A stretch of 42,728 nucleotides of DNA from an uncultured Nitrospinota bacterium. Its GTDB lineage: Bacteria > UBA8248. The stretch covers positions 1 to 42,728 of the forward strand of contig CAMYJL010000001.1 in assembly GCA_947258645.1 (NCBI GenBank), given 5' to 3'. This document shows positions 1 to 39,381 of the stretch, piece by piece (within the stretch, counting starts at the first letter, position 1; each line of letters begins with the position of its first letter). Under the pieces are notes generated by a model. The model ran no database searches, had not been told where the DNA came from, and was given only the letters and a program-made list of their open reading frames with translations. Position numbers and translations under genes: made by a program.

Positions 1-34
1 AAGAATAAACGACGACATCTTTCACATCGCTCAA
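1..34 (-). CDS. possible 5' end of a gene continuing beyond the left window edge (MSDVKDVVVYS...)
   Basis: AAGGAGA Shine-Dalgarno 7 nt upstream of TTG at 34..32. Only 11 codons are visible, so no identity can be assigned. Confidence 0.2.
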   Translation of the reverse strand, partial: MSDVKDVVVYS

Positions 35-233: not shown

Positions 234-713
234 TTATGTGGCACACGGATTCGCTTTAGCTCGCCCCGTGCCCACGTCGCAGGGGTTCCGGGGGCTTTTC
301 CGCAATTCCTCGACAACTTCCCTGGGCCACGGATTCTGAACCGCGCAAGGGTTCGCGGGGCTCAGGAGATACGTCACGCTCCAGGGCGGAAGCATGATCG
401 TCGCGGCGAGGATCAAAACGCCCAGATAAAGATAGGTGTCGCAGACCGTCCTGGGCCTGAGTGAGGCGAATATTCCGGAAACGCCCCCTTTCCGCCCAAT
501 CTGAAGACGCGTTTTAAAATTCCCGAAAAACGTCCACGCAAGCGCCACGGCCGCGAACGCGATGAAATAAGGCCGGTAGAAAAACAAACTCCCCAACCCG
601 CCGACAATCGAAGCCCCGAGACCCAGGGCCAGCCTGAAGGTCCATCAGGCGGATGAAGCGGACCCCGGAATAACCGACCCGGAAAAACCGGATTTTCGAT
701 GCTCCTCTCCCAT
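234..713 (-). CDS. merT: MerT-family membrane protein, copy 1, with one in-frame TGA (647..645; candidate selenocysteine, or else a pseudogene)
   Basis: GGGGAGAGAG SD plus ATG at 713, then 22 sense codons, TGA, then TGG. The same frame continues into the listed TTG ORF 234..596. The product ...GSASSA-U-WTFRLALGLGASIVGGLGSLFFYRPYFIAFAAVALAW...LYLGVLILAATIMLPPW resembles MerT (ASACCLGPLVLIALGFSGAW..EPYRPIFIG..LGFPYV). Confidence 0.6.
612..630 (-). other. SECIS-like hairpin GGCCCU-GGGUCUC-GGGGCU inside merT-like copy 1
   Basis: 6-bp stem with a 7-nt loop containing GGUCU. It starts 14 nt after the TGA at 647..645, which is 11 nt after the following TGG codon. The stem differs from the copy-2 hairpin only by pair-preserving changes. 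Confidence 0.5.
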
Positions 714-774: not shown

Positions 775-805
775 AGCTACACTCCGTACCGTGGTACGTG
801 GTCAA
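775..805 (-). promoter_or_regulatory. MerR-type operator/promoter upstream of merT-like copy 1
   Basis: The minus strand reads TTGACC-ACGTACCACGGTACGGAGT-GTAGCT: a -35 box, a 19-nt spacer and a weak -10 box. The spacer contains CGTAC-N4-GTACGGA. Compare the Tn501/Tn21 merOP, TTGACT-CCGTACATGAGTACGGAAG-TAAGGT, with dyad TCCGTAC-N4-GTACGGA. It also holds a perfect CGTACC-AC-GGTACG palindrome (785..798). Confidence 0.6.
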
Positions 806-867: not shown

Positions 868-1314
868 CTACTTTTGCGCACAGGGATTTTGGGGGGCGCG
901 CGGGTTTTTCGGAGCACAGGGATTTGCTGAAGCGGGGCCAGGGCTTTTGGCCCTGACAAGGAGAGGGCGCCCCCAGTGGGGAAACGCCATCAAAGCGATC
1001 ACAGCCACCACGCCCAGGTAGAGGCGCAGGTCTTTTCCGGTCCTGGGCCAGAACTCGCCGATCACCGCCGCCGCGCCGCGCGGCCGGGCAAGGCGGACGC
1101 GATTCTTGAAATGGCGGGAGAGCGTCCACCCGAGCATCAGGATCGCGAACGCGATGAAGTAGGGACGATAGGGGGTCAGGCCGCCCAGCCCGCCCAACAC
1201 CGAGGCCCCGAGACCCGGAGCCAGCGCCGGGGCTCATCAAGCAGAGCAGGCCGCACCCGAAAAAATGGATCCGATCCAGCCGAATTTTTTTGCCTTGTCC
1301 GCATCCGCCATCAT
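868..1314 (-). CDS. merT: MerT-family membrane protein, copy 2, with two consecutive in-frame TGA codons (1239..1234; candidate Sec-Sec in place of the MerT Cys-Cys)
   Basis: GAGGAGA SD plus ATG-ATG at 1314, then 25 sense codons (MMADADKAKKFGWIGSIFSGAACSA), TGA TGA, and 121 further open codons in the same frame (the listed ORF 868..1200). APALAPGLGASVLGGLGGLTPYRPYFIAFAILMLGW...LYLGVVAVIALMAFPHW matches MerT TM1-TM3. SA-TGA-TGA aligns with MerT SA-C-C. Confidence 0.7.
1204..1222 (-). other. SECIS-like hairpin GGCUCC-GGGUCUC-GGGGCC inside merT-like copy 2
   Basis: It starts exactly 11 nt after the second TGA. Numbering the U of that UGA as 1, the loop carries G22 G23 U24 C25 U26. This is the same sequence at the same positions as the apical loop of the E. 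coli fdhF SECIS (UGA-N11-GGUUGCAGGUCUGCACC). Confidence 0.6.
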
Positions 1315-1361
1315 CGCTCTCCTCTGCGACTTGCCGCCGGGAACCACTCTCCATGCGTAAA

Positions 1362-1393
1362 AGGATACACGCCGTATTATGGTCCAGAGTCAA
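1362..1393 (-). promoter_or_regulatory. candidate promoter of merT-like copy 2 with an over-long spacer (TTGACT-N20-TATCCT)
   Basis: -35 TTGACT (1393..1388) and -10 TATCCT (1367..1362). The spacer CTGGACCATAATACGGCGTG contains only an imperfect dyad (CCATA-A-TACGG). Spacers of 19-20 nt are typical of MerR-family-controlled promoters. Confidence 0.35.
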
Positions 1394-4608: not shown

Positions 4609-4723
4609 GGAAACAGCCCTTTCAAAATAGAAGAAATGAATAGAACGATCCGGTCCGGCTGAACCTTACCGCCGGGCGGGGAAGGGTGTCAAAACGAGGG
4701 GAAAAAGTAAATCGGGGTCGCGT

Positions 4724-4746
4724 AAAAATAAAGCCGGCACGCGGCT
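4724..4746 (-). terminator. intrinsic terminator (AGCCG-CGUGC-CGGCU followed by UUAUUUUU)
   Basis: Hairpin at 4732..4746 and a U-run at 4731..4724 on the minus strand, about 100 nt downstream of the small ORF stop. Confidence 0.6.
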
Positions 4747-4847
4747 ATAGAACGGAGGAGCCCTCCGGGCACACAACCAATACTCTCATCGGAGCCCGTT
4801 GACCCTGATTGGCTTTTGGAATTCGAAAATTGTCCGGAAATATTAAC

Positions 4848-5096
4848 CTATACGCGTATGTTCAGTTTCTGCCCCCGGGAGGCGCCCGCCGGGGCGATGG
4901 GAGTGCTGGTTTTTTCGACGGACCCTACCTGAAACGCACGTTTCGCGAAAATCCGGGCTACATCCGCCTCAACGCCCGTGGGCTTTTCCGGCAATTTAAC
5001 CTCGAATTTTTCGCCCCCGGCGGCCCGGCTCGTTCGATTGTCCGCCGCTGGAGAAACCGCCCGGGAAATCGCCGCGTCCATCCGTGTTTCAACCAA
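4848..5096 (-). CDS. small hypothetical protein (82 aa)
   Basis: TTG start 8 nt after GGGAGA, sigma54-type promoter upstream and terminator downstream. No family recognised. The overlapping plus-strand ORF 4809..5102 is Arg-rich and looks non-coding. Confidence 0.45.
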   Translation of the reverse strand: MVETRMDAAISRAVSPAADNRTSRAAGGEKFEVKLPEKPTGVEADVARIFAKRAFQVGSVEKTSTPIAPAGASRGQKLNIRV

Positions 5097-5154
5097 TTTT
5101 AAGTCTCCCTTGTTGATTCAAGCTTGAGCGCACCTTTTTCCTCAGTAAAGAAGA

Positions 5155-5170
5155 GCAGGATTGGTGCCAA
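5155..5170 (-). promoter_or_regulatory. sigma54 (-24/-12) promoter TGGCACCAATCCTGCT
   Basis: GG and GC elements sit at the exact consensus spacing (TGGCACG-N4-TTGCW), about 60 nt upstream of the TTG at 5096. Confidence 0.55.
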
Positions 5171-5198
5171 TTCGTGATAATTAAATAAAACATTTTAT

Positions 5199-5211
5199 AT
5201 CAATGACTTAT
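5199..5211. promoter_or_regulatory. IHF-like site TATCAATGACTTA preceded by an A/T tract
   Basis: Matches WATCAA-N4-TTR, 30-40 bp upstream of the -24 element, the usual position in sigma54 promoters. Confidence 0.35.
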
Positions 5212-5443
5212 TTGGGTAATTCCACCGATTGAGACGCCCAACCCCACCTCAAAACGAGGGAAAAATGACGCCCGGAGGACCGCCAATTGACACACTCCGC
5301 CACCAGCTGATCCGGGAAACAAAGACACCAGCCCCATGCTACAATCCCGCCAAAATCCCGTGGATAGGCTTTGATCCCTTTATCTCCCCCTCCGGCGAAA
5401 TTGAGAAATTTCAAGCCGGGAAAATCACACGGAAAAAAGAAAA

Positions 5444-28247: not shown

Positions 28248-31200
28248 TTACTCACTCTTTCCGAATTGCTCACCAACCTCTGCCATCGCCTCCTCCACCT
28301 TCTTCAGCCAGAAGGTCATCTCCATCGACCGGTACAATTCAACCGCTTGGGTGAGATGGTCCTGCGCTTCATCTTCTCGGTTCGTCTTCTGGTAGAGATT
28401 CCAGAGTCCCCTACGGCAGTGAGCCACGAGGGGGGGTCTCCCGAGTTCTTGGGCGAGGGAAAGTGCCTGAAGATAAAATTCTTCGGCCTTTCCGGGGTTC
28501 ATGAAGTCCGCGTGAGAGTGGATTTCGCCGAGAAGCCGGAGGGCCCACCCTTCGTTTCCCCGTTCTTTGTGCTCTCGGGAAAGAACAAGTGCACGCTCTC
28601 CGCATTCCATCGCTTTGTCATGTTTGCCGTCCTGGAGGTAAGCCCCGCCCAGCCATGTCACCTGGAGCGCCTGGAAGTTCATAAAATTCAGGGAATCCGC
28701 TTTCTTCACGGATTCTTCAAGGAGGTCAAGGCTTTCAGAGGAGGTCCCATGAGCAGACGACAGGGTGTAAGCATAGCCTAAGGCAGCCGCGGACCGTGGA
28801 GCGCGAATCGTGATATTTTCATCGCGGCAGACCTCAAGGCTGCGTTTGAGACTTTGGATGGCATTGTCGAATTCCCCCTTCCGGAGATGCAAAAATCCAA
28901 CGCTAAAATAGGCTACCGCCTGGCTAAACGCTTGTTTGGCCTTATCGGCAATCTGGACCCCCTCTTCTCCATAGGCGAGCCCTTCAGTGAATTTCCCCCC
29001 GGCGGAAAGGGACAACGCCAAAACACAGCGGGACAGAACAGAGGGCAGACCGGCCATGCCGAGCCGTTCATAGAGCAGGTCCCCTTCAAGTGTGCGCACG
29101 ACAACTTTGGCAAATTCTATCGCCCGTTCCAGGTCGCCTAGAGCGTGATAGGCCCTGGACAGGCGGTAATTCGTCAAGACCTTGAGATCCAGATCTCCGA
29201 AGCGCTCGAGCAAGCCCAGAATCCGCTCGCCCGAGGCAATGGCCTTGTCGGGCATGCCTGCCCGCCAGTAATAATTGCTCAAACAGCTCGAGACCTTCCC
29301 GAGTCGACCATGATCTTCCAGAGCCACCGAGAGGGTTTCAGCCTCGTGAAGATATTGGAGCATTCGATCGTTCTCCCCAAGGAGAAGGAGAGCGTTACGC
29401 AGGTCCAAACGGACATCAACGCCTTTCTCGAGCGTTTCACGCGTCTTGGGGAGGCGCTGAAGAGTGGCGAGCAATTGCTCAAAGTAATTCGCTGCATCTT
29501 GGTTGGCCGATCGCGCCATCGTCTTCTCGCCCGCCTGCTGCAAGTAGATCGACGCCTTGTCCCAGATTTCGCCATTGAATGTGTGATGGGCAAGTCTTTC
29601 GATATATTCATCCAATTGGTCGCCCGCCAATTTCTCCAAAGCCTCCGCAACTCGGCCATGGAGAGCGCGTCTTTTCTCATGAAGGAGGCTTCCGTAGGCG
29701 ACCTCGAGGGTGAGAGAGTGCTTGAATGTGTATTCCAGCTCGGGGAATAGGCTTGTCTCGTATAAAAATTCTGCAGCTTGCAAGTCCGAAAGACACCGGC
29801 ATAACTCATCCTCAGACAACTCGGAGACGGTCTGCAACAGAGAAAAGGACACGTTCTTGCCGATAATGGATGCGGTCTGGAGAAGACTTTTTTCTTGAGG
29901 TGGAAGCCGATCGATCCGAGCATCGATTAGTGAATGGACCGTGGCCGGCACCTTGATGGCAGGGAGCGCCTTCGTCAGGCGACGGCTACCCGGCTCACCC
30001 ATCAAGGCTCCTGTTTCCACTAAAGTACGGACGCTTTCCTCTAAAAACAATGGATTGCCTTGCGCCCGTTCAATGAGGAGGGAAAAAAGCGGTTCGAGGC
30101 TGGAATCATCCCCCAAAAGGTTCAGAAGAAGTTCCTCTGCGCTTTCGGGGGGCAGTGAGTCGAGCCGGAGCTGGGCATAGTAGGTTTTGTTCGCCCATTT
30201 GTGTTTGTAATTAGGGCGATAGTTGACCAAAAGGAGAAGACGGGCGGTCGGGATACTTTCAACGAGGGTGTCGAGCAGTTCTTGGGTTTCCAAATCGATC
30301 CAGTGAAGATCCTCAAAGATCAGAATCAAGGGTTGAACCTGGCTCTCCCGCAGAAAGAGGTGTTTCAAAGCATCCAGGGTACGTTTCTGGCGTTGATGGG
30401 GATCAATGGCTTTCCACGCCGGGTCCTCCACCGGCACCTCAAGGAGCTCAAAATAGGCCGGAAGGAAAGGGCCCAATGTTCCATCAAGCATGAAGATCTT
30501 CCCGGTTATCTTTTCCCGTATTCTTCGGGAATCATCAGGATCCTCAATCCCGAAGTAGGTCTTGAGAAGATTGATGACGGGAAGATACGCGGTGGCCATT
30601 CCGAATGAAACGGAGCCGCTTTCGAGCATAAACCACCCATCCACCCATTTTGAACGCGTAAATTCCCAGTAAAGGCGGGATTTGCCGACGCCGGCCTCCC
30701 CCACCACCGCCATGACCTGGCCGTTTCCCGCGCCAGCCTGATCGAGAGCCTCTTTGAGGGATGAGAGTTCATTTTGGCGCCCGACGAAACGGGCCAGCCC
30801 ACCCGTCGCGGTTGCTTGGAAGCGTGTCCGGGTGGGCGTGCCACCGACCAGCTCGAACACCTCCACGGGCTCGGCAATTCCCCTTACCGGTATCGGGCCA
30901 AGAGGTTCGACCCGGAGGAACCCCTCCGCCTGATGGAGGGTCTCGGCGGTCAAGCGAATGCTCCCAGGCGGAGCATGCTGTTCCATCCTCGCAGCCAAAT
31001 GTGTGGTCTGGCCGACAGCGGAGTAGTCCATGTCCAGATCGCTGCCAATGGAGCGGACAACCACCTCTCCGCTATTGAGTCCGACTCGAACTTGAACCTC
31101 CACCCCATGTGACCGGCGAACTTCGCTGCTATAGCTGCGAATGGCGCCCTGTATGGCAAGCGCGGCATAACAGGCTCGAAGCGCGTGATCCTCCATGGCC

Positions 31201-31640
31201 AGCGGTGCACCAAACAGCGCCATGATGCCGTCCCCCATCACCTGATTGACCATCCCTTCGTAGCGATGAACGGCCTCCATCATTCGCTCCAAAACCGGAT
31301 CGAGGAGATCCTTCGACTCCTCGGGATCCCGGTCGGCGAGGAACTCCATTGAACCCTTCATGTCGGCAAAGAGGACGGTTACGTGCTTGCGCTCGCCCTC
31401 TAGAGCCGCCTTTGAGGTCAGAATGCGCTCGGCCAGGTATTTGGGGGTGTAGGTGCCGGGGGAGCCAAAACGTATTTCCGGGTCGCTGATCGACGAAAGG
31501 TCCTGGCCGCACTGGTGACAGAACTTGTTGGAAGGGGAATTGGTGGTGCTGCAGGCGGGACAGACAACCTCGAGTTTCTTCCCGCACTCGCTGCAGAAGT
31601 TCACTCCATTCGGGTTCTCGTGGCCACAGCTGCATCGCAT
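28248..31640 (-). CDS. double zinc-ribbon / class III adenylate-guanylate cyclase / STAND P-loop NTPase (AAA_16-like) / TPR protein
   Basis: CSCGHENPNGVNFCSECG...CPAC...FCHQCG. Cyclase motifs VLFADMKGS, VMGDGIMALFGAP, GLNSGEVVV, GQTTHLAARME. Walker A GEAGVGKS and Walker B LILIFEDLHWID. About 450 aa of TPR-like repeats. ATG at 31640 has GAGG 6 nt upstream; the ORF is open from TTG 31676. Confidence 0.85.
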   Translation of the reverse strand: MRCSCGHENPNGVNFCSECGKKLEVVCPACSTTNSPSNKFCHQCGQDLSSISDPEIRFGSPGTYTPKYLAERILTSKAALEGERKHVTVLFADMKGSMEFLADRDPEESKDLLDPVLERMMEAVHRYEGMVNQVMGDGIMALFGAPLAMEDHALRACYAALAIQGAIRSYSSEVRRSHGVEVQVRVGLNSGEVVVRSIGSDLDMDYSAVGQTTHLAARMEQHAPPGSIRLTAETLHQAEGFLRVEPLGPIPVRGIAEPVEVFELVGGTPTRTRFQATATGGLARFVGRQNELSSLKEALDQAGAGNGQVMAVVGEAGVGKSRLYWEFTRSKWVDGWFMLESGSVSFGMATAYLPVINLLKTYFGIEDPDDSRRIREKITGKIFMLDGTLGPFLPAYFELLEVPVEDPAWKAIDPHQRQKRTLDALKHLFLRESQVQPLILIFEDLHWIDLETQELLDTLVESIPTARLLLLVNYRPNYKHKWANKTYYAQLRLDSLPPESAEELLLNLLGDDSSLEPLFSLLIERAQGNPLFLEESVRTLVETGALMGEPGSRRLTKALPAIKVPATVHSLIDARIDRLPPQEKSLLQTASIIGKNVSFSLLQTVSELSEDELCRCLSDLQAAEFLYETSLFPELEYTFKHSLTLEVAYGSLLHEKRRALHGRVAEALEKLAGDQLDEYIERLAHHTFNGEIWDKASIYLQQAGEKTMARSANQDAANYFEQLLATLQRLPKTRETLEKGVDVRLDLRNALLLLGENDRMLQYLHEAETLSVALEDHGRLGKVSSCLSNYYWRAGMPDKAIASGERILGLLERFGDLDLKVLTNYRLSRAYHALGDLERAIEFAKVVVRTLEGDLLYERLGMAGLPSVLSRCVLALSLSAGGKFTEGLAYGEEGVQIADKAKQAFSQAVAYFSVGFLHLRKGEFDNAIQSLKRSLEVCRDENITIRAPRSAAALGYAYTLSSAHGTSSESLDLLEESVKKADSLNFMNFQALQVTWLGGAYLQDGKHDKAMECGERALVLSREHKERGNEGWALRLLGEIHSHADFMNPGKAEEFYLQALSLAQELGRPPLVAHCRRGLWNLYQKTNREDEAQDHLTQAVELYRSMEMTFWLKKVEEAMAEVGEQFGKSE

Positions 31641-31935
31641 CTTGTGCCTCGACCCTTCTATTCGAATTTGTAGCAACTTACAATTGAATTTATATCATCA
31701 GAACAAAGCCTGCTCTCGTCAATAGCGTAAAGGGAAACCTCCGAAAAGCACATGCTCGGCCCAATTAACCGCCAAATCTGCGCGTTTTCAGCGGGACATT
31801 CTCGAGTGGCTTATTTAGATTTTATAAAGGGAGGCTCCCTCAAGGGAATATAACGGAATTTGAGAGGTATGTTATTTCTCGAAAGGTGAGGCAGATGACG
31901 CCGGTCGGGATTTCTCCGCCCCGCCTGGCCTCGTG

Positions 31936-36441: not shown

Positions 36442-37335
36442 TCAGCGTTTGGGAATCTCGATGGGCAAATCGGTCCTGTCTCCCCATTCTTTCCATGAGC
36501 CCAGATAGTTTCGCGCCCGCGGATAACCAAGAAGCTTGTAAACCATATAGGCGTGGGCCGATCGATAGCCGCCCTGGCAGAGTGGAACCATTTCCTTGTC
36601 GGGCGTGAAGCCCTGCGCCTCCAACATGCGCCGCAACTCATCCGCTTCCTTGAGCGAGCCGTCCTCGTCCACAAAATCGAGCCACTCAAGATGGACAGAA
36701 CCCGGGATCGCGCCACCTCTCGCCGCACGGATGTTCTCGGCGAAATATTCCCCGTCGCTACGTGTATCATGGATGGCCACGTCCGGATCTTTGAGATGAT
36801 CGAGAATGTACTGCGCGGTAGCAATGCGCTCTTCAACGGGTTCTTTCAAATGGCTGGCGAAAGAAGAACGCACAATCCGCCTCGTGCCTTGAGGCCCGCC
36901 CATCAGCGGGCTTTGCGCCATCGGCCACGCATCACGCGTTACTGGAAATTCGGCCCTTTTCCAGGCGTTCATTCCGCCGTCCAAGACATGGACATTTTCG
37001 TGGCCGAGATATTCAAGAAACCAGAATCCCCTGGCACAACGGAAGCCGGTTATGTCTTCGTAAAAAACGACCGTCTTGTCGTAGTCGACGCCGCGGATCT
37101 CCATGAGATAAGCGAGCATCCAGGTAAAGGCCGCGAGAGCCTGGGGACGCGTGTCGTTCAGCGAGACGCCGTAGAGATCAAAATGCGCAGCGCCTTCGAT
37201 GTGGCCAGAACAAAAATCCGGCGCGGGACGCGTGTCGATGATGATGAGATCGTCACCCTTCTGGCCGCCAATACGATCTCTGAGTCGCTGCGGAGACCAA
37301 GCAAGATCGGGATCGGTGTAATTCTTATAGGCCAT
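36442..37335 (-). CDS. two-domain rhodanese (thiosulfate / 3-mercaptopyruvate sulfurtransferase)
   Basis: Two rhodanese repeats; active-site loop CQGGYRSAH. Confidence 0.8.
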   Translation of the reverse strand: MAYKNYTDPDLAWSPQRLRDRIGGQKGDDLIIIDTRPAPDFCSGHIEGAAHFDLYGVSLNDTRPQALAAFTWMLAYLMEIRGVDYDKTVVFYEDITGFRCARGFWFLEYLGHENVHVLDGGMNAWKRAEFPVTRDAWPMAQSPLMGGPQGTRRIVRSSFASHLKEPVEERIATAQYILDHLKDPDVAIHDTRSDGEYFAENIRAARGGAIPGSVHLEWLDFVDEDGSLKEADELRRMLEAQGFTPDKEMVPLCQGGYRSAHAYMVYKLLGYPRARNYLGSWKEWGDRTDLPIEIPKR

Positions 37336-37378
37336 CGATTCGCTACCCCTCTGTTACGAAACCAAAGCAGCCCGGTCG

Positions 37379-37870
37379 CTACCGGTATTCACGCGGGCTG
37401 AGTGGCTCAAGACGCTCGTCGAGCTTCCGGGACGGCGCCGAGGGCTGAATGACACGAACCTGAACCCTCTCCCTGCCTTCCGGTGTGACAAAACGATAGC
37501 TTAGCTTGGCAATTTGCGAAAAATTGTACCAGACATGCGTATTGCGCTCGCCGCCAGCGATGAGCACAAGGTGCACCATCTCTATCCGCCCATCGGGAAA
37601 TGTAACGACCTCCAGCCGATCGACTTCACGCGCGAACGTCTCGGATTTGCCCGTACTCATCGTGATGGTCACGACCAGATCGAGCGTTCGCTGGACCCGG
37701 GAAACGGGGGCGGAGGGCAGCGTTTCGCCCGCCTGAGGAGAACTGCCGGGGGCGGCCGGAGGGACAGGCGGCAGTCCTGGAACGGGTTGCGCAAAAGACC
37801 CGGATACACCGACGCACAAAACGGCCATCGCCGCGAGAATTGCCGCAATAAAGGATTTGATCGGTATCAT
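37379..37870 (-). CDS. hypothetical secreted protein
   Basis: Signal peptide MIPIKSFIAAILAAMAVLCVGVSGSFA, Pro-rich linker; no family recognised. Confidence 0.5.
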   Translation of the reverse strand: MIPIKSFIAAILAAMAVLCVGVSGSFAQPVPGLPPVPPAAPGSSPQAGETLPSAPVSRVQRTLDLVVTITMSTGKSETFAREVDRLEVVTFPDGRIEMVHLVLIAGGERNTHVWYNFSQIAKLSYRFVTPEGRERVQVRVIQPSAPSRKLDERLEPLSPREYR

Positions 37871-37935
37871 TTTGCTTTTTCCTCCATCCGCCAAGAATCA
37901 GCCTGGATATTCGAGAGGCAATTCCGCCAAATTTC

Positions 37936-39291
37936 TCAAGAAGCGTCCGCCGCACACCTGAAACCGTAAACAGGCAAGCGCCGTCCGGGAACGTCTCCGG
38001 TCCGGCTTCCCACCATCATCGCCCATTTGCTATTCACCCACGAGCCCCCACGAAGTGTTCGAAACACCGTGCCGTCCCGAACAACCGGGCGCGACTTGGC
38101 AGGATCGGAGCGAAAGGCATCCTGCACCCATTCCCAAACGTTTCCCGACAGATCCTCCACGCCGTGAGCGCTCGCTCCGCCCGGCCTTCGGCCAACAGCC
38201 TTGGGACCCCCGCGATCGGGTCGCAAGCCGAATACAACATTCCGTTCCTCAAATTTATTGCCCCAGGGGTACCGGTGGCGTCTGTTATTTCCCCGAGCGG
38301 CAAATTCCCATTCCGCTTCCGTGGGAAGACGCTTGCCCGCCCAATTGCAATAGTCCCTGGCCTCGTTCCAAGTTACGCCCACGACGGGAAGGTGCGGGCC
38401 GGAAAACCGGGGCCTTTTCCAGAAAGGGGGTTCAGCGTCGCCCGTTGCCCGGACAAAGGCCGCGTACCAGGCATTTGTCACCTCAAATTTGTCGATCAGA
38501 AAACTTCGGACCTCCGGTTGTGCTGATTTTTTATCGCCAACCGCCCCTCCGGGAATCAACACCATGTTGTGAGAGGTTGGGCGCCGGGAATACGAAAGAA
38601 CTTTACTTCTTTTGGGTTTCGCCGGAGATAATTCGGCTTTGGATTTCAATGTCTGGTCGGTTTTTTTTTCTTTCTCTTTTTTCTTCGCAGACCCAGCCCC
38701 AAAAACCTCCTTGATAATTTCAGGAACGATGAATTTTAAATTCTTCGGGGGAAGCCGGGGAGGCGGAAGGCCTCGAGACGCCCTCGCCTGCAACTCATCG
38801 TCGATATTCGTGAGTTCAGGCCATCGTTCCTTGTCGAGCGATCCCAGCAATTCGCGGGCTTTTTCAGAATGTCCGTAGCGGTAGAAAAGGTAGGCCAACC
38901 CCCGGCGCGTGCTTCCATCTTCCGGGTAAAGCGCCTGGGCCCTCTCAAACACCGGGAACGCTTCGTCCGGACGCCCGGAATCATACAAAGTCCAGCCCAG
39001 ACCGGAGAGAGCGTGCAGGCTGTTCGGCATCATGCGGAGCGCTCTCCGAAAGTGGAGGTCTGCAGTTTTATAGCTTTCCCTCCGGTAGGCGCGCTCACCT
39101 TTTTTGCTTTCGGAGGCCGATAAAACCATCCTCGAGGACTGCGGCTCGGAGGATGGCTTCGGAGACTCCAACACAGACTCCTCCGTCTCCGGGCTTTTTT
39201 CCGCACCAAGGGGGCCGGACAGGTGCTCTTGCTCCAAAGCACATCCTGAAAGACTCAAGAAAACCGTCAATATCGAAGCAGCATACCGCAT
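37936..39291 (-). CDS. lipoprotein with TPR repeats and a formylglycine-generating-enzyme (SUMF1/FGE-sulfatase) domain
   Basis: Lipobox LSLSGC. FGE motifs MVLIPGG, FLIDKFEVTN, PVVGVTWNEARDYCNWAGKRLPTEAEWEFAARG, YPWGN, LRGGSW. Confidence 0.8.
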   Translation of the reverse strand: MRYAASILTVFLSLSGCALEQEHLSGPLGAEKSPETEESVLESPKPSSEPQSSRMVLSASESKKGERAYRRESYKTADLHFRRALRMMPNSLHALSGLGWTLYDSGRPDEAFPVFERAQALYPEDGSTRRGLAYLFYRYGHSEKARELLGSLDKERWPELTNIDDELQARASRGLPPPRLPPKNLKFIVPEIIKEVFGAGSAKKKEKEKKTDQTLKSKAELSPAKPKRSKVLSYSRRPTSHNMVLIPGGAVGDKKSAQPEVRSFLIDKFEVTNAWYAAFVRATGDAEPPFWKRPRFSGPHLPVVGVTWNEARDYCNWAGKRLPTEAEWEFAARGNNRRHRYPWGNKFEERNVVFGLRPDRGGPKAVGRRPGGASAHGVEDLSGNVWEWVQDAFRSDPAKSRPVVRDGTVFRTLRGGSWVNSKWAMMVGSRTGDVPGRRLPVYGFRCAADAS

Positions 39292-39381
39292 GGGAGAAAT
39301 ATACACGCCGGAGAGCGAATCGGTAACCCCGAAGAGGCCTCCGGACGGAAAGACGTAGTGACGCCTGAAAGGTGTGGATCG

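Follow-up and report, generated by a model that had tools for sequence, protein, structure and literature searches.

In the stretch of DNA analysed here (42,728 nt from an uncultured Nitrospinota bacterium, hereafter the window), we identified a minus-strand gene, designated copy A, that we interpret as encoding a MerT-like inner-membrane protein in which two adjacent UGA codons are both recoded as selenocysteine (Sec, U) by way of a single hairpin, as part of a Sec-rich mercury-handling system that lacks merA. We put the probability of this reading at roughly 70 %. The features of the gene are as follows.

868..1314, minus strand: copy A, putative gene of a MerT-like selenoprotein with 148 codons, two of them in-frame TGAs; translation possibly begins at the ATG at 1311
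1318..1324, minus strand: Shine–Dalgarno sequence GAGGAGA of copy A
1234..1239, minus strand: tandem in-frame TGA-TGA, proposed Sec26-Sec27; present in 7/7 distinct orthologs, with CC in 24 Cys-type relatives and U-C in the paralog at locus L039
1204..1222, minus strand: SECIS-like hairpin of copy A, GGCUCCG-GGUCU-CGGGGCC, 14 nt past the first UGA (UGA1) and 11 nt past the second (UGA2)

The reading frame put forward in the initial annotation was recovered in full. The Shine–Dalgarno sequence (1324–1318) precedes an ATG (1314–1312) that opens a minus-strand frame reading MMADADKAKKFGWIGSIFSGAACSA, followed by TGA (1239–1237), TGA (1236–1234), 121 open codons and a TAG at 870–868. A second ATG at 1311–1309 has a better, 6 nt spacing from the Shine–Dalgarno sequence and coincides with the starts of the orthologs, which carry GGAGGAG or GAGGTGA ahead of their ATG. 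Hydropathy analysis of the product gave three hydrophobic segments (about residues 11–46, 50–68 and 93–116) and a basic loop between TM2 and TM3 (residues 69–92, with six K/R residues). Two MerT motifs are present, PYRPxFI at the opening of TM2 and FP(x)W/Y at the close of TM3, and the protein is extended at its C-terminus by an additional tail containing NPC[AS] repeats.

In every assembly examined, gene callers annotated a truncated ORF that starts at GTG 1200 (a codon mistaken for TTG in the initial annotation), and no NCBIfam model recognises copy A or its tandem paralog, copy B; for these two reasons, the family is invisible to current pipelines. The truncated ORF is exactly the gene expected if the TGAs were a true double stop, closing a 25-residue leader peptide ahead of a two-helix protein without a Cys/Sec site. 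One natural clade member, L035/P0024, resembles such a protein: it has an ATG of its own immediately ahead of PGLGA, and neither the first half of TM1 nor a Cys or Sec is present. The comparative evidence nevertheless makes a double stop very improbable. Our ortholog set comprised seven distinct sequences from at least nine independent assemblies (NCBI, JGI, ENA and Logan). Over the 24 codons 5′ of the TGAs, pN/pS was below 0.5 in all ortholog pairs in the copy A frame (pS 0.31–0.93, pN 0.02–0.32), whereas pN equalled or exceeded pS in the two shifted frames. The upstream region is thus under purifying selection in the copy A frame only, and the possibility that it is non-coding, which had been left open initially, no longer stands. 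These codons are in frame with the downstream ORF in 12/12 genes, and the upstream and downstream parts jointly rebuild the MerT TM1 motif at a point where the Cys-type relatives are uninterrupted. Synonymous sites are frozen over the hairpin, which would moreover occlude the GTG 1200 start.

The TGATGA hexamer and the hairpin were kept in all seven distinct orthologs, at near-saturated synonymous divergence. A sequencing error can be excluded as the source of the TGAs, because at least nine independent assemblies carry the same hexamer. Nothing beyond the in-frame stops themselves speaks for an artefact, a pseudogene or a UGA codon reassigned in this organism, and we regard this explanation as effectively refuted: purifying selection is strong on both sides of the TGAs, the hexamer is conserved among the orthologs, and 15 of the 31 long ORF segments in the window terminate in TGA. 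As initially claimed, TGA is a normal stop here, so there is no change of genetic code.

Constraint on the hairpin extends to the RNA level. Stem pairing was found in 98.6 % of cells, against 29–66 % in slid registers, and the fourth pair occurred as U-A, C-G or U-G but never as C-A. Third-codon-position entropy was 1.10 bits upstream, 0.24 bits over the hairpin and 0.87 bits downstream, and conservation of the element in relatives, on which the original proposal depended, is therefore supported by both measures. The test for covariation suggested at the same time was less informative: the pairing itself is kept, but the signal was not significant (77 of 500 shuffles reached the observed value), the sequences being few and related. 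Since covariation is not significant alone, we rely on the suppression of synonymous variation and on a negative control, in which a SECIS-compatible hairpin was detected in 10 of 12 Sec-type genes but in just 2 of the 24 Cys-type MerT genes. The clade is very small, with nine representatives at E ≤ 1e-10 among 1.84 billion entries in an exhaustive profile search. That search returned no close full-length Cys-type clade member, and a scan of a genome-contig collection found only distant Cys-type MerT genes and no close ortholog.

The position of the hairpin (1222–1204, starting 11 nt past the second UGA) was confirmed by coordinates, and counting the U of that UGA as 1 reproduced the loop numbering G22 G23 U24 C25 U26 of the initial annotation. 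We assume that all five bases are identical to those of the Escherichia coli fdhF loop, on the strength of the fdhF sequence quoted in that annotation. The stem consists of 7 uninterrupted base pairs, the apical loop lies 21 nt from UGA1 and 18 nt from UGA2, and the predicted energy is −14 kcal/mol (fold of a 27 nt context). Published criteria for bacterial SECIS elements (loop of 3–9 nt, stem of 4–16 bp, G in the first two loop positions, 16–37 nt to the loop and MFE ≤ −7.5 kcal/mol; PMC13188914) are satisfied for both UGAs. The loop reads GGUCU or AGUCU on a stem of 7 bp. When the window was scanned over its full length on both strands for SECIS-like elements, only the merT UGAs at 1239, 1236 and 647 matched, plus one out-of-frame site. 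Rfam scans (the window at gathering threshold, positions 1–1500 at a permissive E-value) returned no SECIS and no other meaningful family.

As for the capacity to decode Sec, none of selA, selB, selC and selD was found in the window or in the related loci examined, and ARAGORN detected no tRNA-Sec in the window or in 16 loci. Support for this capacity is only indirect and comes from the neighbouring Sec genes described below and from BSepDB, where metagenome-assembled genomes labelled Nitrospinae/Nitrospinota rank in the top ten bacteria for selenoprotein content (PMC13326102).

The paralogs bear on whether both UGAs are decoded as Sec, beginning with copy B.

234..713, minus strand: copy B, tandem paralog in which only one in-frame TGA occurs, directly ahead of a TGG (Sec-Trp)
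645..647, minus strand: in-frame TGA of copy B, proposed Sec23, kept in L032, L033, L034 and the L039 paralog
612..630, minus strand: SECIS-like hairpin of copy B, GGCCCUG-GGUCU-CGGGGCU, 14 nt past the UGA

The first position is read as Sec in all 12 clade genes, and the second varies among paralogs between U, W, Y and C; in the copy-B-type genes, the residue after Sec is Y in L032 and L033, W in L034 and C in the L039 paralog. This pattern would also fit a protein in which only UGA1 is Sec, as in the copy-B paralogs, with UGA2 either skipped by a +3 hop of peptidyl-tRNASec onto the identical codon or misread by a near-cognate tRNA (Trp, Cys). Hopping of a tRNA classically takes place between neighbouring codons that are identical, and the UGG (Trp) of copy B is one transition from UGA. 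The other Sec codons examined in the clusters stand at 14–15 nt, or at 24 nt in the case of the first UGA in the HMA UxxU motif, and not at the 11 nt of UGA2. We nevertheless judge a single-Sec product unlikely. UGA2 is invariant in seven diverged orthologs, though UGG or UGC would be far more efficient had Trp or Cys been selected; a hop would leave one residue fewer between Sec and the conserved LG motif than is found in any paralog; and the U-C paralog marks the second position as one for a chalcogen ligand. Furthermore, 11 nt is the canonical E. coli distance (PMC8659212).

Stem spacing is 14 nt in all of the single-Sec paralogs of the clade, and the range tolerated in the lineage spans 11–24 nt, including 15 nt in the glutaredoxin gene. 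The initial annotation considered the service of two adjacent Sec codons by one SECIS to be mechanistically unusual. The use of one hairpin by two UGAs is not unprecedented, however: those of the HMA UxxU domain in the same gene island, at 15 and 24 nt, share a single hairpin.

With U written as C, copy A scored 31.1 bits (E 2.6e-07) and copy B 18.8 bits (E 1.7e-03) against the Pfam MerT model PF02411 (cutoff 32.9); the E-value of copy A makes homology to MerT clear, with the gathering threshold marginally missed. A PDB sequence search returned only noise. All 24 Cys-type relatives carry CC-x-x-P, and copy A has TGA-TGA followed by A-P. The expectation that Cys-containing orthologs would carry CC in the UGA-UGA columns was met by all of the distant relatives, and the L039 paralog has U-C, but the exact column is uncertain by one residue: in Cys-scored alignments UU falls on CC, and in a Sec-masked profile alignment the first U falls on the second Cys and the second U one residue past it. 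The first UGA finds its Cys counterpart in CC-type MerT and the second in the L039 U-C paralog. The cytoplasmic-loop Cys pair of MerT, which we take to be C76/C82 in Tn501 numbering, has no equivalent in copy A, whose loop (residues 69–92) contains no Cys; the loop of copy B has one Cys that varies among orthologs. At the level of sequence comparison, we have demonstrated the continuity of the copy A gene across the UGAs, the conservation of the UGAs and hairpin, RNA-level constraint and a correspondence between Cys and Sec, along with the MerR-type operators and neighbouring mer genes described next.

The genomic context of copy A includes three MerR-type sites and the start of a further putative selenoprotein gene.

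1365..1393, minus strand: MerR-type operator/promoter-like site upstream of copy A, TTGACTCTGGACCATAATACGGCGTGTAT, degenerate, with three mismatches to the motif
777..805, minus strand: MerR-type operator/promoter upstream of copy B, exact motif match, kept in L003, L032, L033 and L034
107..135, minus strand: third MerR-type operator/promoter, upstream of the glutaredoxin gene, exact motif match
1..34, minus strand: start of a glutaredoxin-like gene (TTG 34–32) that runs off the end of the window and whose orthologs encode UxxC selenoproteins

The motif, TTGACYNNGTACNNNNGTACGGNNTGTAG, occurs at these three sites in the window against none expected by chance, and is also present in eight related loci. 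It has the features of MerR-type promoters, namely a TTGAC −35 box, a GTAC-N4-GTAC inverted repeat and an over-long spacer of ~19–20 bp before the −10 box, and because of these spacers the promoters were not detected by a standard sigma-70 scan (16–18 nt spacers). The motif resembles the Tn501 merO dyad.

Syntenic contigs with the source label Nitrospinae/Nitrospinota add a Sec-glutaredoxin, a Zn-ribbon protein, MerF/MerE, MerR, a MerT-HMA fusion bearing UxxU, and a thioredoxin reductase; the island also encodes a CopZ N-terminal-like Fe-S metallochaperone. The glutaredoxin orthologs read MNEGVKEVIVYSSTT-U-PPC in L013 and ...STT-U-TPC in L002, with a syntenic copy in L034, and the Zn-ribbon gene offers a Sec/Cys pair (CPV-U-G versus CPT-C-G). 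Genes for MerR, MerF and a MerE-like protein were located in the syntenic loci L034, L036 and L038. The UxxU HMA domain is fused to a CC-type MerT, and assignment of this fusion to NF045683 was rejected (31 bits against a cutoff of 375). Neither merA nor merP was found in the syntenic cluster loci, and the window does not reach the remainder of the cluster; their absence from the cluster leaves the fate of imported Hg(II) unexplained.

The missing merA and merP, together with the CopZ-like metallochaperone and the thioredoxin reductase, would also suit a Sec-Sec protein that handles something other than Hg(II), such as Cu(I), Ag, Au, Cd, organomercury or selenium. The score of copy A just under the Pfam MerT threshold points the same way, as does the regulator, which falls just short of the Hg-MerR model (145 bits against the TIGR02051 cutoff of 151) and also matches the ZntR and CueR models at ~100–110 bits. 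We consider such a substrate a possibility, albeit an unlikely one. TIGR02051 remains the best regulator match, MerF scored 93 bits against an equivalog cutoff of 50, and a MerE-like gene is present. By our reading, the MerR also has all three Hg-ligand Cys positions of Tn501 MerR and, as noted, the operators are merO-like.

In the Sec-Sec reading that we prefer, translation of copy A would require Sec at both UGAs and would yield a three-helix MerT-like inner-membrane protein, the topology being inferred. The hairpin at 1222–1204 would act as a bacterial SECIS: with UGA1 in the ribosomal A site, its stem would start 14 nt downstream, and SelB-GTP-Sec-tRNASec bound to the GGUCU loop would deliver the first Sec. 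One translocation would then bring UGA2 to 11 nt from the same stem, the spacing of E. coli fdhF, where a second SelB ternary complex could deliver the second Sec. The resulting vicinal Sec-Sec is predicted to lie in the first transmembrane segment, at or no more than one residue from the MerT Cys-Cys Hg(II) site. Expression would be driven from the MerR-type, putatively mercury-responsive promoter. Copy A may operate in a Sec-rich, merA-less mercury set with the Sec-aromatic/Sec-Cys paralog, UxxC glutaredoxin, Zn-ribbon protein, MerF/MerE, MerT-HMA UxxU fusion and thioredoxin reductase, in which selenolates would stand in for thiolates as soft-metal ligands. There is no experimental evidence for SelB-dependent decoding of both UGAs, for Hg(II) as the substrate, for the membrane topology, or for periplasmic metal-catching by the NPC-repeat tail, all of which are inferred. 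Two successive low-efficiency recoding events would also result in a low protein yield, which is a point against the model.

According to the prevailing view, bacteria need a tightly positioned SECIS to insert Sec. A UGA-UGA that is natural, conserved and equipped with one hairpin offers a test case for the spacing tolerance of SelB and for the reloading of a SECIS on consecutive codons. A vicinal Sec-Sec would hold Hg(II) much more tightly than Cys-Cys, and release of the metal would then need explaining; the Sec-glutaredoxin, UxxU HMA domain and thioredoxin reductase encoded alongside hint at how this might occur. The gene set points to merA-less, selenium-dependent mercury handling in an uncultured, selenoprotein-rich lineage. 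We lean, though only slightly, towards the broader view that copy A is the first natural bacterial selenoprotein with adjacent Secs, in which a single in-ORF SECIS supports two SelB deliveries (at 14 and then 11 nt) to build a vicinal diselenol Hg(II) site in a membrane transporter, and that it forms the entry to a MerA- and MerP-free selenolate relay (UU transporter, U-aromatic/U-C paralog, UxxC glutaredoxin and UxxU HMA domain).

Copy A shares with Tn501/Tn21 MerT (PF02411; NF010314) a length of about 115–150 residues, three hydrophobic segments with a vicinal chalcogen pair in the first, PYRPxFI at the start of TM2, FP(x)W/Y at the end of TM3, and a MerR-type promoter. It differs in having a proposed Sec-Sec in place of Cys-Cys, a spacing from the pair to Pro that is one residue shorter, no loop Cys pair, no merP or merA partner, and the additional NPC[AS]-repeat tail.

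Selenoproteins of the MerT family are already known, and what appears to be new, judged from sequence, is the adjacent UU motif. A ‘putative mercuric transport protein’ with one Sec in a C/SxxU motif has been catalogued (ABB16073.1; PMC13188914, Table 1), as has a small MerT group with a CU motif, for example WP_250634603.1 (Haft & Gwadz, bioRxiv 10.1101/2022.07.06.499078). These proteins and the NF045683 MerT/CopZ fusion-like selenoprotein resemble copy A in replacing a metal-ligand Cys with Sec through an in-ORF SECIS. The catalogued proteins have one Sec, as CU or C/SxxU, whereas UU is proposed for copy A. NF045683 matched copy A at only 28.6 bits (cutoff 375), through the MerT part alone (profile positions 13–121 of 235), and copy A lacks an HMA/CopZ domain. 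The UU motif is not listed in a 2026 catalogue of 119 prokaryotic selenoprotein families.

We found no report of adjacent Sec-Sec from one hairpin in any bacterium. The only report of consecutive Sec residues that we found concerns a eukaryotic algal protein disulfide isomerase, PDI_e, in which a GUGUU motif is encoded with adjacent TGA codons (Jiang et al. 2020, PMC7539508). That protein is a soluble oxidoreductase of the thioredoxin fold, in contrast to the membrane metal transporter-like copy A, and the distance between UGA and SECIS is not constraining there, because the eukaryotic SECIS lies in the 3′ UTR.

The E. coli fdhF SECIS comprises a 17 nt upper hairpin 11 nt past the UGA, with conserved apical-loop bases G23 and U24 and a bulged U17 (PMC8659212). 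The copy A hairpin likewise lies inside the ORF, 11 nt past UGA2, with G23 and U24 present. It differs in that position 17 is a paired C within a perfect 7 bp stem, with no bulged U17, and in that it must also serve a second UGA, 14 nt upstream. Another parallel is the UxxU metal-binding (seleno)protein NF041115 (‘putative mercuric reductase’, from an Olavius symbiont study), which similarly combines two Secs, a soft-metal site and one downstream hairpin. In NF041115, the Secs are two residues (9 nt) apart in a soluble HMA fold, whereas those proposed for copy A are adjacent and transmembrane.

The data support the view that the adjacent in-frame UGAs of the MerT-like gene copy A are a real feature, and that they reflect local selenocysteine (Sec, U) recoding as the initial annotation had proposed: the UGAs and the hairpin that follows them are conserved and the region upstream is coding, although experimental demonstration is lacking, as is evidence of Sec machinery in the source genome. 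The frame reads MMADADKAKKFGWIGSIFSGAACSA, followed by TGA TGA (1239-1234), 121 open codons and a TAG at 870-868. All of the coordinates first proposed for the Shine-Dalgarno (SD) sequence, ATG, TGA TGA, TAG and hairpin were confirmed on the minus strand, and the sole slip concerned the internal ORF at 1200, which starts with GTG and not TTG. The second ATG has better SD spacing than the first, and agrees with the ortholog starts. TGA terminates 15 of 31 long ORF segments in the window and is, as had been argued, an ordinary stop; therefore, the genetic code is not reassigned.

1324-1318, minus strand: Shine-Dalgarno sequence GAGGAGA of copy A, from sequence reading
1314, minus strand: ATG start codon of copy A, with a second ATG at 1311, from sequence reading
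1222-1204, minus strand: copy A hairpin GGCUCCG-GGUCU-CGGGGCC, with a folding energy of -14 kcal/mol in a 27-nt context

When the read-through products were used as protein queries, the only hits were gene calls cut at the hairpin, and every close member of the clade was a truncated gene call. The clade is rare: a profile search gave 9 cluster representatives (E up to 1e-10) out of 1.84 billion. Ortholog DNA was taken from the loci of those gene calls, from one metagenome scan and from contigs reached via the neighbouring Zn-ribbon gene. This yielded seven distinct copy-A orthologs (the window and, from other assemblies, L001, L003, L013/L039, L034, L002/L036/L037 and L040), and the TGATGA hexamer was present in 7/7, invariant despite near-saturated synonymous divergence. 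Over the 24 codons 5′ of the TGAs, the orthologs gave a pS of 0.31-0.93 and a pN of 0.02-0.32 in the proposed frame, whereas pN was equal to or greater than pS in the two other frames. The region upstream of the TGAs thus behaves as coding sequence in the same frame as the downstream part, and we conclude that translation includes the N-terminal piece, in frame with the C-terminal piece.

The claim that the hairpin is a conserved, SECIS-like element was borne out by pairing and by synonymous-site constraint, and only weakly by covariation. Stem pairing was retained in 98.6% of cells, compared to 29-66% in slid registers, and one stem pair occurs as U-A, C-G and U-G, never as C-A; formal stem covariation was reached by 77/500 shuffles. 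Third-codon-position entropy was 1.10 bits upstream, 0.24 over the hairpin codons and 0.87 downstream, and four consecutive four-fold-degenerate sites over the hairpin codons were invariant. As a negative control, Cys-type MerT genes carried a SECIS-compatible hairpin at this place in 2/24 cases, against 10/12 Sec-type genes, with mean energies of -3.2 and -10.5 kcal/mol, respectively. Judged from these sequence comparisons, the putative SECIS is tracking the UGA, not the encoded peptide. Both UGAs satisfy the published bSECIS model, lying 21 and 18 nt from a 5-nt loop with G first.

Run over both strands of all 42.7 kb, a crude scan for SECIS-like elements returned only the UGAs at 1239, 1236 and 647, plus one out-of-frame match. 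The UGA at 647 belongs to a tandem paralog, copy B, that was absent from the initial annotation.

713-234, minus strand: copy B, ATG 713 to TAA 234, directly downstream of copy A and about 45% identical to it
647-645, minus strand: in-frame TGA of copy B, followed by TGG (Sec-Trp), from sequence reading
630-612, minus strand: copy B hairpin GGCCCUG-GGUCU-CGGGGCU, with the GGUCU loop of copy A, from sequence reading

The single UGA of copy B aligns to the first UGA (UGA1) of copy A, and its stem begins 14 nt further on. In five copy-B-type genes the TGA is followed by TGG (two genes), TAT (two) or TGC (one, in L039), giving U-W, U-Y and U-C.

Scored against Pfam MerT with Cys in place of Sec, copy A reached 31.1 bits (E = 2.6e-07), just under the 32.9-bit gathering score, and copy B reached 18.8 bits; a search of solved structures found none that is related. 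Hydropathy indicates three MerT-like hydrophobic segments in copy A, and UU falls midway along the first. The loop between TM2 and TM3 is basic and free of Cys, whereas canonical MerT carries its second Cys pair there.

That Cys-type homologs would have CC in the UGA-UGA columns held true in substance: CC-x-x-P occurs at this point of TM1 in all of the distant MerT relatives recovered (24 genes). The exact column is ambiguous by one residue. When Sec was masked as X and aligned to the profile of the 24 relatives, the Pro and LG anchors matched the first U to the second Cys, leaving the second U one residue past it. Alignments in which U is scored as C instead match UU to CC and need a one-residue deletion. 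Either way, the pair lies in the same helical turn. The L039 paralog has U-C-A-P where copy A has U-U-A-P, and so supplies a Cys counterpart for the second UGA (UGA2). The main rival explanation is that only UGA1 is decoded as Sec, with UGA2 being misread or skipped by a hop. Two observations argue against this: UGA2 is invariant across orthologs, and the U-C paralog has Cys at the second position.

The copy A tail comprises 32 residues with NPC[AS] repeats. Such repeats follow the last TM in copies A (868-966) and B (234-365), with 2-6 repeats per tail depending on the ortholog, and are also noted for the protein records P0029, P0031-P0033 and P0035. Long arrays of them occur in signal-peptide proteins that are otherwise unrelated, in some cases beside a CxxCH cytochrome c domain, which fits a periplasmic tail given the N-in, three-TM topology that we infer. 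NPC[AS] may represent a repeat, not yet described, that binds soft metals in the periplasm. One clade member (L035 660-1085; P0009/P0024) starts at its own ATG just before PGLGA, without the first half of TM1 or any Cys/Sec site, and retains the NPC tail and a MerR-type promoter.

The motif TTGACY-NN-GTAC-N4-GTACGG-NN-TGTAG has exactly three occurrences in the window, where 0 are expected, and is also present in eight related loci. It combines a TTGAC -35 box, a dyad and an over-long spacer, as is typical of MerR-family promoters, and we take it to be similar to Tn501 merO. One operator precedes each of three small genes, which therefore appear to be individually MerR-controlled and not one operon.

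1393-1365, minus strand: MerR-operator-like site before copy A, degenerate with 3 mismatches, from the motif scan
805-777, minus strand: MerR-operator-like site before copy B, from the motif scan
135-107, minus strand: MerR-operator-like site before the glutaredoxin gene, from the motif scan
34-1, minus strand: start of the glutaredoxin-like gene, first 11 codons (TTG, then SDVKDVVVYS), running off the left edge of the window

Glutaredoxin (grx) orthologs in L002, L013, L034, L036, L038 and L040 have an in-frame TGA in UxxC and their own SECIS-like hairpin. The L034 cluster encodes copy A (UU), copy B (U-W), grx (UPPC), a LysW-like Zn-ribbon protein, MerF (93 bits, cutoff 50) and MerR (TIGR02051, 145 vs 151 bits). 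The cluster in L036, L037 and L038 encodes a CopZ-N-terminal-type metallochaperone, a CC-type MerT-HMA fusion, a MerE-like protein, thioredoxin reductase and ferredoxin; neither merA nor merP was seen in the syntenic contigs. The fusion (L036 3073-3750, L038 1320-2015), annotated as two truncated genes, reads through TGA into an HMA domain with GMS-U-PFT-U (UxxU), with a single hairpin 15 and 24 nt past its two UGAs. It passes neither NF045683 nor NF041115.

Evidence for Sec use in the lineage comes from the Zn-ribbon gene and from BSepDB. The Zn-ribbon gene itself has CPV-U-G in L013 (953-1249)/L039 and CPT-C-G in L002 (841-1137), such that TGA replaces the second Cys codon of the first CxxC in some relatives and TGC stands there in others. 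No sel genes were found in the window. The related contigs are labelled Nitrospinae/Nitrospinota by their sources, and BSepDB counts MAGs with this label (GTDB phylum UBA8248) among the ten known bacteria richest in selenoproteins (PMC13326102).

The remaining window is chromosomal housekeeping (gyrA, isc operon, CoA-transferases and truD). A xylose-isomerase-like TIM-barrel/AP-endonuclease-2 family protein (1420-2502, minus) has a Lys/Ala-rich, histone-H1-like N-terminal tail of ~50 residues. At 36442-39306 (minus), a rhodanese-type sulfurtransferase adjoins a protein weakly matching SenA (selenoneine synthase)/EgtB, in the C-terminal domain only (86 bits, far below cutoff); the pair may be relevant to the metabolism of sulfur or selenium. 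A 1142-residue protein (28248-31676, minus) scores 324 bits against the TOMM-system kinase/cyclase fusion family, short of the 706 cutoff, and ~800 bp at ~4610-5440 has a G+C of 0.50-0.55 against ~0.62 in the flanks, with no convincing ORF.

By inference alone, Sec insertion at both UGAs of copy A is most likely served by one hairpin. UGA1 would be decoded at 14-nt spacing, as used by all single-Sec paralogs; one translocation later, UGA2 would lie 11 nt from the stem with G23/U24 in register, and a second SelB complex would bind the same hairpin. The E. coli fdhF element has the same 11-nt distance and G23/U24 (PMC8659212). Across its predicted elements, the lineage clearly tolerates different spacings, with a UGA-to-stem distance of 15 nt in grx, and 15 and 24 nt for one hairpin in the HMA UxxU. 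In TM1, the product would offer Hg(II) a vicinal diselenol, with the other Sec proteins of the cluster as plausible acceptors or reductants.

As a MerT-family bacterial selenoprotein, copy A is of a known kind, albeit without experimental demonstration. Catalogued examples include the single-Sec ‘putative mercuric transport protein’ ABB16073.1, with C/SxxU (PMC13188914 Table 1), a small CU-motif group, e.g. WP_250634603.1 (Haft & Gwadz), and NCBIfam NF045683. Copy A falls outside the last of these (28.6 bits, cutoff 375). The adjacent Sec-Sec with one in-ORF SECIS, and the paralog series U-U, U-C, U-W and U-Y, appear to be undescribed. A 2026 inventory of 119 prokaryotic selenoprotein families and subfamilies contains UxxU, UxxxxU and multi-domain double selenoproteins, and no UU. 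The only consecutive Sec-Sec in the literature we found is that of algal PDI_e (GUGUU), which is eukaryotic and has a 3′-UTR SECIS (PMC7539508).
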